22,757 nucleotides of DNA from a virus (Duplodnaviria; Heunggongvirae; Uroviricota; Caudoviricetes): the IMG/VR virus record IMGVR_UViG_2526164666_000014, positions 1 to 22,757 of that record. One strand, written 5' to 3'. Both the position numbers and the translations under genes were made by a program. The first letter of the stretch is position 1. Every line of letters starts with the position of its first letter. The notes under the pieces are model-generated. The model ran no database searches. It was not told where the DNA came from and worked only from the letters and a program-made list of their open reading frames with translations. Below are positions 10,766 to 11,939 of this stretch, one piece after another.

Positions 10766-10948
10766 ATGAGCGAGCAAATATTCAGAGAGATTAAGCCACG
10801 GTTTTATCGCAAGGTAAGGGTGGTTTATCAGGACGAAAACAAGACATGTGCATACGCCATTCATAATGGTCGGTGGTCAGTGTTCGACACCAAAAACTTC
10901 GAGAAGAACTTCGAGAGGATTAAGGGTGATGAGGAAACTAACATTTGA
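10766..10948 (+). CDS. hypothetical protein, about 60 aa
   Basis: AAGGAG SD 6 nt upstream of ATG 10766; 3' end overlaps ninB start. Confidence 0.45.
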   Translation: MSEQIFREIKPRFYRKVRVVYQDENKTCAYAIHNGRWSVFDTKNFEKNFERIKGDEETNI

Positions 10949-11276
10949 ACTAAGAAGCCCCATCCATCAGCAGAACGCCATTCAAGCTATCCAGCAAATT
11001 CTTCCAGACCCAACCAAACCAATCGTAGTAACCATTCAGGAACGCAACCGCAGCATTCGGCAAAATGCACGCCTTCACGCGATGCTATCTGAAATAAGTA
11101 AGAAGGCTACATATCACGGAAAAGCAAGAAATATTGAGTTTTGGAAGGGGTTATTCGTTTCTGGTTGGCAGATTGCAACCAACCAGCACCCTGAGATTAT
11201 ATCAGGGTTAGAAGGTGAGCTAATAAACATCAGAGAGAGTACGGCGACTCTATCTGTAAAAAAATATCCGAAATAA
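10929..11276 (+). CDS. ninB: NinB-like recombination protein, 5' portion (116 aa), truncated by downstream HNH insertion
   Basis: MRKLTFELRSPIHQQNAIQAIQQILPDPTKPIVVTIQERNRS matches the lambda NinB N-terminus; ends at TAA 11274-11276. The NinB C-terminal signature KARWGDRAA reappears at the end of the next ORF. Confidence 0.7.
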   Translation: MRKLTFELRSPIHQQNAIQAIQQILPDPTKPIVVTIQERNRSIRQNARLHAMLSEISKKATYHGKARNIEFWKGLFVSGWQIATNQHPEIISGLEGELINIRESTATLSVKKYPK

Positions 11277-11336
11277 TGGACTACATAGAAGCATATTGTG
11301 CCATGAACTCAATTCATCTTAGCGAATGGAGGAATT

Positions 11337-11939
11337 ATGATTGAGGTTTGGGTAGATATCGAAGGGATTCCATTTTATCAGGTTAGCAATAAAGGAAATT
11401 TCAGGTCTATTACGAGGGAAGTTACAGTAACATCAACCAGACAGAGGCCATATAAGAAAATAATTAATGGCACTAGTGTAAAACCATTCAAGTGCAAGTC
11501 GACAGGATATCTTCAAATAAAGGTATACGGTAAGAAATACAGCGCCCACAGGATAGTTGCGAAAGCATTCTGTACAGGGTTCTGTGATGGCTTGGTAGTT
11601 AATCACAAAAATGGGCGAAGAGATGACAATAGGGCTGATAACCTTGAATGGGTATCACATTCTGAAAACTCAAAACACGGATATAAACAAAATGGAAGAA
11701 TACCTATATCGCTAGGTAAATTTAGTGGTGACCATCCTGCCAGTAAAGCTGTTATTTCTACTGACATGAAAACTGGGGAGGAGGTTTATTATGAAGCAGC
11801 TATGGATGCTGTCAGAGAAGGATTTGATAGTTCGTCAATTAGTCGTTGCTGTAATGGCGAAAGCTCATATCACAAAGGAAGATTCTGGCGATTTGCAAAT
11901 GAAAAAATGAAAGCGCGATGGGGAGATCGGGCTGCATGA
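11337..11939 (+). CDS. HNH homing-type endonuclease (200 aa) fused in frame to the last ~10 codons of ninB
   Basis: Own GGAGG SD; HNH motif (VNHKNGRRDDNRADNLEWVSHSENSKH); C-terminus [11 protein letters not shown] is the NinB terminus; stop overlaps the next start (ATGA). Confidence 0.85.
   Translation: MIEVWVDIEGIPFYQVSNKGNFRSITREVTVTSTRQRPYKKIINGTSVKPFKCKSTGYLQIKVYGKKYSAHRIVAKAFCTGFCDGLVVNHKNGRRDDNRADNLEWVSHSENSKHGYKQNGRIPISLGKFSGDHPASKAVISTDMKTGEEVYYEAAMDAVREGFDSSSISRCCNGESSYHKGRFWRFANEKMKARWGDRAA

Follow-up and report, generated by a model that had tools for sequence, protein, structure and literature searches.

Free-standing endonuclease genes such as those of SegF, SegG and MobE in T-even phages spread by intron-less homing, and in phage Aeh1 the insertion of mobE splits nrdA into two genes. 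A related arrangement is present in a stretch of 22,757 nucleotides (nt) from a virus of the Caudoviricetes (IMG/VR record IMGVR_UViG_2526164666_000014, positions 1 to 22,757; the whole stretch is called the window), in which the gene for an HNH endonuclease stands at the 3' end of ninB, the gene for an Orf-family recombination mediator. As in the T-even phages, the endonuclease gene adjoins the end of a conserved gene, accompanies a divergent and presumably resistant allele of it and has mosaic flanks as expected of co-conversion tracts. However, the T-even enzymes are of the GIY-YIG type or are HNH enzymes without NUMOD4, whereas the window HNH protein has NUMOD4, and homing was demonstrated experimentally for the T-even genes while it is predicted from sequence for the window. 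Furthermore, the downstream part of nrdA in Aeh1 is a separate functional gene half, whereas the nine-codon piece of ninB in the window is a relic fused to the endonuclease.

With the I-HmuI, I-HmuII and I-BasI family the window HNH protein shares an N-terminal NUMOD4 β-sheet domain, an HNH_3 core and, as a putative third part, a C-terminal helix-turn-helix. The catalytic His and the distal Asn of I-HmuI are common to both proteins, and Asp74 of I-HmuI corresponds to Asn in the window protein. The I-HmuI gene is carried by a group I intron that interrupts a DNA polymerase gene, whereas the window gene is free-standing and has no intron match.

Fusions of Orf/NinB with HNH domains are known from Gram-positive temperate phages (DUF968; phiETA Orf20; PhiNM1 Gp16) (PMC2034487, PMC4118853, PMC12817073). 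Common to these fusions and the window pair is the linkage of an HNH nuclease to a DNA-binding protein of the Orf family within a recombination/replication module. Each fusion is one polypeptide, and its HNH is a Cys-rich zinc-finger one like that of Ref/IscB, whereas the window pair consists of two open reading frames (ORFs) in different frames, overlapping by 8 nt in relatives, and its nuclease is I-HmuI-like. Compared with lambda Orf (1PC6), the window NinB is nearly identical over the first 43 residues, and window-type NinB is 45% identical overall in the core, has a five-residue insertion (VSGWQ) and is without the projecting helix (Orf 127-146). In the literature searched, we found no paper on the relic, the mosaic junctions or a clade-wide link between HNH and Orf-family genes; Curtis et al. 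merely marked HNH genes in a gene-order figure (PMC4118853).

The comparisons below suggest that a free-standing HNH cassette of the homing type probably stands in place of the codons for the NinB C-terminal helix and was recombined into a lambda-type ninB. The case is largely an ordinary one, a free-standing HNH gene at a conserved phage gene plus a recombination scar plus an unrelated frameshift.

Mosaic structure of the ninB/HNH locus

Judged by similarity, the locus belongs to the nin region of a lambdoid, Shiga-toxin-converting phage: over bases 10800-12100 the window was 99.9% identical to the Shiga toxin 2 (Stx2) phage 86, as it was to dozens of Stx2a phages. The features of the locus are as follows; amino acids are abbreviated aa and Shine-Dalgarno sequences SD.

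10929..11344, + strand: ninB, Orf-family recombination mediator of a short subfamily (138 aa in relatives; frameshifted in the window)
10929-11276, + strand: ninB ORF as read in the window (115 codons, TAA at 11274-11276)
10929..11054, + strand: lambda/HK022-like 5' segment of ninB, with the left mosaic junction after the IQERNRS codons
11258..11264, + strand: A7 homopolymer in ninB, a 1-nt deletion against the A8 of relatives, leading to a premature stop
11328..11344, + strand: translational-coupling junction (SD GGAGG 11328-11332, HNH ATG 11337, ninB TGA 11342-11344)
11337..11939, + strand: free-standing I-HmuI-like HNH gene, 200 aa (NUMOD4, HNH_3 core, putative C-terminal NUMOD-like domain)
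11909..11939, + strand: relic of a lambda-type ninB 3' end (codons K138-A146 plus stop, the last nine HNH codons), right mosaic junction
11936..12463, + strand: dam, N6-adenine methyltransferase (Pfam Dam E 1e-64; named dam in phage 86 and HK140)

An original prediction, made from the sequence alone, had recognised the last residues of the HNH ORF, KARWGDRAA, as a NinB C-terminal signature. Indeed, this tail is identical to residues 138-146 of lambda NinB, and at the nucleotide level 11909-11939 matched the ninB 3' end of HK140 at 31 of 31 positions, with the identity running on into dam. Because of this match and the downstream dam, which is 99% identical to dam of HK140, HK97 and Sf6, we regard the relic of a lambda-type ninB as genuine. 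From 11906-11909 onward, HK140, HK97, Sf6 and lambda variants, which carry a lambda-type ninB followed by the same dam, matched the window at 97-99%. Similarity to lambda-type phages is absent 5' of 11909 until the 5' end of ninB is reached, where in blastn lambda-type ninB genes matched nt 1-129 of ninB only (lambda 85%, HK022 96%); in the HK140 alignment the identity is lost after ...CGCAACCGCAGC. Since homology is limited to these two flanks, the interior of the lambda-type ninB has been replaced by about 855 nt, made up of two-thirds of a different ninB and the HNH gene. Of the resident ninB there remain approximately the first 126 nt, which are lambda/HK022-like, and the last 31 nt. The NinB-like tail of the HNH ORF is best described as a recombination scar, which places, to the base, the join of the foreign ninB+HNH cassette to the lambda-type nin region.

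The stop codon of the HNH ORF overlaps the start of dam (ATGA, 11936-11939) in the same way as the ninB stop does in lambda-type phages; this, too, had been noted correctly in the original prediction, as had the HNH ORF's own SD, GGAGG, five bases 5' of the ATG. The native C-terminus of the HNH family lies a few residues past ...HKGxxWRF, and in an alignment of 16 homologues the KARWGDRAA extension was confined to HNH proteins of the E. coli lineage. It is absent from the HNH proteins of Salmonella phage SEN22 and of contigs L006, L007, L039 and L121, which end in ...ERMAA or similar. In phage APC_JM3.2 an HNH gene 98.5% identical to that of the window carries the relic with the variant of lambda itself (GCGAGA), and the next gene is ninC, which is also the case in lambda. 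Given this same junction with a lambda-spelled relic, the join between ATG and AAAGCG seems to have a single origin, and the relic seems to have been used later as a homology patch for the swapping of downstream modules.

Other junctions were observed as well. The 134-aa NinB of L037 (3001-3405), and likewise that of P0006, has an unrelated N-terminal part of about 40 residues (MKCVKYHLTNESIRYNAIQYL...) joined to a window-type remainder at RNRSIRQNARLH; because the switch occurs at the same point, the left junction near 11054 appears to be a recurrent crossover site. In L104 (2115-3067) a 129-aa NinB is followed by an HNH protein ending in ...AFGTQRGVEWSPTSLGRAA, resembling residues 117-127 of lambda NinB (AFGTERGVKWS). 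This tail (AFGTQRGVEWS...) has the appearance of a further ninB relic, longer than the first, independent of it and at another junction. The L104 contig also encodes a DnaB with a weak match to a Hint (intein) domain.

On the + strand the order of genes is primase/helicase (7908-9788), several small ORFs, ninB, the HNH gene, dam, ninE and roi (12918-13595), and in the phage 86 annotation ninF precedes roi. Ends of nin genes (ninB, HNH, dam, ninC) recurrently have the form ...(R)AA plus stop with a GCnGCATGA stop/start overlap, and the preceding W-G/R codons form the SD of the next gene; such sites occur at 11930-11939 and 12455-12463 in the window, at 1935-1944 in L003 and at 2483-2491 in L002. 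The GCnGCATGA junction may serve as a recombination linker between nin genes.

Distribution of the NinB-HNH pair and the NinB tail

The HNH ORF matched NUMOD4 (PF07463, residues 3-63, E 1.4e-13, 51.3 bits at a cut-off of 23.4) and HNH_3 (PF13392, E 2.4e-11), and more weakly, at 19.2 bits and thereby below the cut-off of 27, the C-terminal NUMOD-like domain of I-HmuI (PF22083). These Pfam matches apply to 11337-11936, while those to NinB and Dam apply to 10926-11273 and 11918-12460, respectively. When 16 homologues were combined into a profile, it matched I-HmuI (1U3E) over residues 3-171 of 174 with E 3.7e-24. The catalytic core comprises N89-H90, N102 and N111, of which H90, N102 and N111 are invariant in the 16 homologues; in the alignment to I-HmuI the general-base His corresponds to H75 and the metal-binding Asn to N96, and hence the catalytic His and Asn, the loss of which would have spoken against the original prediction, are present. 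Against SEN22 and more distant relatives the nonsynonymous divergence (dN) of the HNH gene was 0.14-0.41 with synonymous divergence (dS) saturated, and for that reason selection is described by dN and saturation instead of dN/dS ratios. The low dN at saturated synonymous sites indicates that the protein has been kept by strong purifying selection. In L024 (3545-4760; IMGVR_UViG_2713896798_000010), a near-identical relative, an IS5 element (InsH-like transposase, CTAG target) lies after about codon 46 of the HNH gene; ninB is intact and HNH broken there, the reverse of the window.

A short NinB with an overlapping HNH gene was found in phages of E. coli, Salmonella, Yersinia, Pantoea, Mixta, Aeromonas and, with a YbcN-type Orf as the upstream protein, Klebsiella, and also in metagenomic and prophage contigs with NinB 54-80% identical, usually with the same 8-nt overlap (SEN22, APC_JM3.2, L005-L008, L039, L097, L214, L216). 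In SEN22, which is 81% identical at the nucleotide level, a 138-aa NinB is followed by an overlapping 193-aa HNH protein ending in ...FADERMAA and then by ninD. The pair was also found in L100-L104 and L106, in Yersinia and in an 'Acinetobacter' metagenome-assembled genome, and in Pantoea with an overlap of 32 nt. In Klebsiella, HNH follows a homologue (37% identity, E 7e-34) of YbcN, a divergent relative of Orf whose characterisation was published by Curtis et al. (PMC4118853). A profile search of genome contigs with the NinB alignment gave nine loci, mostly distant ones, among which Mixta alone was useful. In the Aeromonas prophages or phages L100-L103 (2107-3365), a NinB of 137-138 aa, HNH and a 103-105-aa RecA_dep_nuc/DUF968-like (P1 Ref-like) nuclease are encoded in a row with overlapping ends.

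IMG/VR was scanned with the HNH alignment as query, and hits were ranked against a Pseudomonas member. At 43 of 50 loci with an HNH protein at least about 41% identical, the gene lay directly after a NinB-family ORF, and at least six NinB subfamilies were represented upstream of HNH in these 50 loci; at four of them HNH followed a DUF1367 gene. Essentially none of the more distant HNH homologues in the scan lay after NinB, and among the loci sampled none had HNH directly downstream of a lambda-type NinB. In L111, L121 and L149 (1544-2585) an HNH protein 64-69% identical to that of the window is encoded directly after a 149-aa DUF1367 gene. The idea that DUF1367 is a YbcN/Orf relative was rejected, as no BLASTP similarity was detected. 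In Pseudomonas, HNH genes 53-61% identical follow unrelated genes, including one for a 112-aa coiled-coil protein, and the upstream genes of the 61%-identical HNH pair are unrelated. In complete E. coli genomes, equal counts were obtained for HNH and for the variant interior of ninB, namely 77 genomes and 80 places each. By its spread over hosts and subfamilies, the two-gene NinB-HNH architecture is an old, widespread and conserved form and not a recent accident.

A different endonuclease of 182-188 aa (HNH_3 + AP2) occupies the same slot after a NinB of 138/139 aa in L005 (2910-3458) and L038 (3395-3961); in tblastn no alignment to the window HNH was obtained. Its gene overlaps the ninB stop by 8 nt in L005 and by 8 or 26 nt, depending on the ATG chosen, in L038, and the protein ends in ...RAA.

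The C-terminal tail of NinB differs in a manner that suggests what the HNH gene replaced. Residues 1-130 of the 138-aa NinB align with residues 1-126 of lambda Orf (1PC6; E 1.4e-31). After the equivalent of Orf residue 126 there are eight residues in the 138-aa NinB, against a projecting C-terminal helix of 20 residues in Orf. The lambda Orf helix contributes to DNA binding (PMC4118853). When proteins sharing the core FWKGLFVSGWQIAT...GLEGEFINIRESTA were compared, tails were 13-16 residues long in NinBs that have no HNH gene next to them or have lambda-like ending motifs (P0021 with ...CDEDLSIKKWSARWGA and ybcO following directly; others with ...VSERWAA or ...DEYADWAQR), and 6-8 residues long in HNH-linked NinBs. 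In the latter the last codons, read in the ninB frame, are the SD and start of the HNH gene (...EWRNYD = GAA TGG AGG AAT TAT GAT). With moderate confidence, the HNH gene appears to occupy the place of the former last 10-15 codons of ninB. That the 138-aa NinB is natively short, as same-length homologues in Yersinia and Acinetobacter might suggest, was considered and dropped, because those homologues also precede HNH and the tails of HNH-less NinBs with the same core are longer.

A proposed homing cassette or a possible cooperative recombination module

In the history that we favour, an HNH gene with its own SD and ATG would have come, in an ancestor, to replace the codons of the flexible NinB C-terminal helix, so that the stop of ninB now falls 8 nt within the HNH gene and translation of the two would be coupled. 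Recombination in the lineage of E. coli would then have brought the cassette into a phage with a lambda-type ninB followed by dam. There the HNH ORF runs in frame through the KARWGDRAA relic, and the stop/ATGA overlap would hand the ribosomes over to dam. The putative enzyme would be a site-specific nicking or cleaving endonuclease that cuts HNH-less ninB alleles of co-resident lambdoid phages, and through repair of the break the recipient would acquire a copy of the cassette along with the linked ninB allele, which would itself resist cleavage; such a process is intron-less homing.

Several observations can be counted for such a cassette. An asymmetry, in that HNH seems to need the ninB slot whereas NinB does not seem to need HNH, argues for a selfish element, as does the other endonuclease (HNH_3 + AP2) in the same slot of L005 and L038. 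The occurrence of HNH genes 66-69% identical to that of the window after the unrelated DUF1367 gene, and of others after unrelated Pseudomonas genes, speaks for mobility. The mosaic flanks and ninB relics look like the ends of conversion tracts, and the I-HmuI-type layout with two predicted sequence-reading domains is a further point in favour.

Other results weigh against this reading. We infer homing from the enzyme family and its distribution, and no pair of the same ninB allele with and without HNH, the classic mark of a recently mobile homing gene, was found; in the 77 E. coli genomes the linkage between ninB allele and HNH is perfect. NinB and HNH co-diverge, with identities to the window falling from 86/78% to 62/66% while the tight coupling is kept, and this long co-divergence would also fit a function that is cooperative or has been domesticated. 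Throughout the HNH clade, Asn (N89) stands in the position of the metal-binding Asp74 of I-HmuI. Among more distant HNH-less NinBs, L040, L048 and P0029 are also short-tailed, and therefore the idea of a displaced helix rests on a modest sample. Finally, W-G/R motifs at C-termini can arise merely from coding the SD of the next gene, and these motifs and the shared GCnGCATGA ends can mimic homology between unrelated C-termini; HNH tails such as ..DYWGIAA and ..EQWEAAA are for this reason no more than possible further ninB relics.

The alternative that survives best, although we consider it rather unlikely, is a cooperative recombination module, in which the HNH nickase would make recombinogenic ends or gaps and NinB/Orf would load RecA or Red-beta there, the pair being the two-gene counterpart of the Gram-positive Orf-HNH fusions (DUF968; PhiNM1 Gp16, a RecA-dependent nickase). 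NinB-HNH fusions and a suggested collaboration of their parts have been published (PMC2034487, PMC4118853), and Gp16 consists of a NinB-like N-domain plus HNH with nicking stimulated by RecA (PMC12817073). Consistent with such a module, the pair is coupled, is under purifying selection, is conserved from Aeromonas to E. coli and occurs also after a YbcN-type Orf, and a gene for a Ref-like RecA-dependent nuclease adjoins the Aeromonas pair. However, the HNH protein belongs to the I-HmuI type, which has two modules for sequence-specific DNA binding, and not to the Cys-rich DUF968/Ref kind, and no DUF968 or RecA_dep_nuc match was found in it with Pfam. HNH is also located after unrelated genes (DUF1367; the Pseudomonas gene for a 112-aa coiled-coil protein), and most NinB genes, including that of lambda, work without it. 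Moreover, in the window ninB is broken while HNH is intact, and in L024 the reverse is true owing to IS5 in HNH.

In a more specific and doubtful version, the I-HmuI-like HNH clade and the Orf-family mediators (NinB, YbcN) would form a conserved cooperative unit in which HNH replaces the DNA-binding helix of Orf in trans. Either a homing nickase would travel with its own RecA/Red-beta loader and need it for gene conversion to follow from its nicks, or the pair would do with two genes what the Gp16-type nickase does with one in phage replication or recombination.

Returning to the homing cassette, in lambdoid phages of gamma-proteobacteria the members of one I-HmuI-like clade are almost always encoded at the 3' end of an Orf-family gene, which suggests an endonuclease specialised on the gene of a recombination mediator. 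If homing holds, the locus would be a convenient and genetically tractable case of intron-less homing for temperate phages, Stx phages among them, would bear on the origin of nin-region mosaics and would be a natural test of the need of Orf for its C-terminal helix.

The ninB frameshift and the remaining explanations

In an alignment of 10800-12100, the window and phage 86 differed at one position in 1301 nt, A7 (11258-11264) in the window versus A8. The run was A8 in all 62 phage records that were at least 99% identical in blastn and at 80 of 80 places in the 77 complete E. coli genomes. Among IMG/VR contigs, 26 of 27 had A8 and one had A7; the latter (L036) carries a different allele, 98% identical over ninB-HNH. 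With A8 restored, ninB reads on to the TGA at 11342-11344 and encodes 138 aa (...LSVKKISEIMDYIEAYCAMNSIHLSEWRNYD), 100% identical to orf72 of phage 86, and the end of ninB and the start of HNH then have 8 nt in common (ATGATTGA). The annotation of phage 86 agrees, with orf72 (138 aa) and orf73 (200 aa) corresponding to ninB and HNH with the 8-nt overlap. The NinB core (PF05772, E 4.6e-35, residues 4-113) is present in the window, while an intact reading frame is not. Homopolymer indels are the commonest mutation and also the commonest sequencing error. The A7 run is probably either a sequencing error in a homopolymer or a rare mutation, namely a homopolymer contraction, in a gene that is dispensable.

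It is very unlikely that A7 is a programmed recoding site, at which a -1 ribosomal frameshift or transcriptional slippage would let one gene give rise to NinB in two lengths. The phase of the heptamer, A_AAA_AAA (GT[A AAA AAA]TAT), is correct for this, a -1 slip would restore exactly the normal A8 protein, and A7 recurs in a second, independent allele (L036). Recoding is nevertheless thought unlikely because A7 is so rare (0/80 E. coli places, 0/62 phage records, 1/27 IMG/VR contigs); in addition, the other lineages all encode NinB in a single frame, and no stimulatory structure was evident, none having been searched for. Some leaky expression of full-length NinB from the A7 run is conceivable.

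The original prediction had proposed that a homing endonuclease was inserted recently, splitting ninB after about 110 codons, leaving a 60-bp non-coding gap and deleting about 25 codons. This is still less probable than recoding. The window itself suggests such a picture, since its ninB ORF ends at 11276 and the next ORF begins at 11337. NinB is indeed recognisable for about 110 residues, yet the stop that follows is owed to the A7 frameshift. The 60 bases (11277-11336) between the window ninB stop and the HNH ORF are ninB coding sequence, because relatives with A8 read through them to 138 aa; they encode the remaining 23 codons after the A run, which are kept in the window in the -1 frame and were not removed, and one extra A, as present in relatives, restores the 138-aa NinB. 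Alignment with related ninB genes, suggested as a way to define an insertion junction, instead revealed the single missing A against phage 86, which refutes a recent split. The two-part form is, moreover, old and conserved in relatives across many genera, an outcome that the original prediction had itself named as one speaking against it. The intuition behind the proposal appears, with moderate confidence, to hold at the ancestral level, as HNH lies at the ninB 3' end, where the last 10-15 codons were, and HNH-linked tails have 6-8 residues against 13-16. The endonuclease is, by this comparison, not the cause of the ninB break at codon 115; the frameshift in the window is unrelated to the cassette and misled the first reading.

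Restoration of NinB by self-splicing, with the HNH ORF lying in a group I intron or as an intein within ninB, can practically be dismissed, and the original prediction, too, had seen no evidence for an intron or intein: I-HmuI itself is intron-encoded and NinB C-terminal codons do follow the HNH ORF in frame, yet relatives such as SEN22 and L006 have no 3' 'exon' and end in ...MAA or ...VNA plus stop, an Rfam scan of 10500-12500 at E<=1 gave a chance snoRNA match as its only hit and no intron family, no Hint domain was found in ninB/HNH with Pfam, and an intein is impossible because the ninB and HNH frames differ in intact relatives with a stop between them. A genes-in-pieces arrangement was also rejected, the downstream piece being nine codons long, without a start of its own and absent in SEN22, L006, L007, L039 and L121.

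For annotation, ninB of the window should be given as a frameshifted gene, or be checked for a homopolymer error, and not as a gene split by insertion. Existing RefSeq names are 'recombination protein NinB' for the first gene of the pair and 'NUMOD4 domain-containing protein' or 'NUMOD4 motif-containing HNH endonuclease' for the second.

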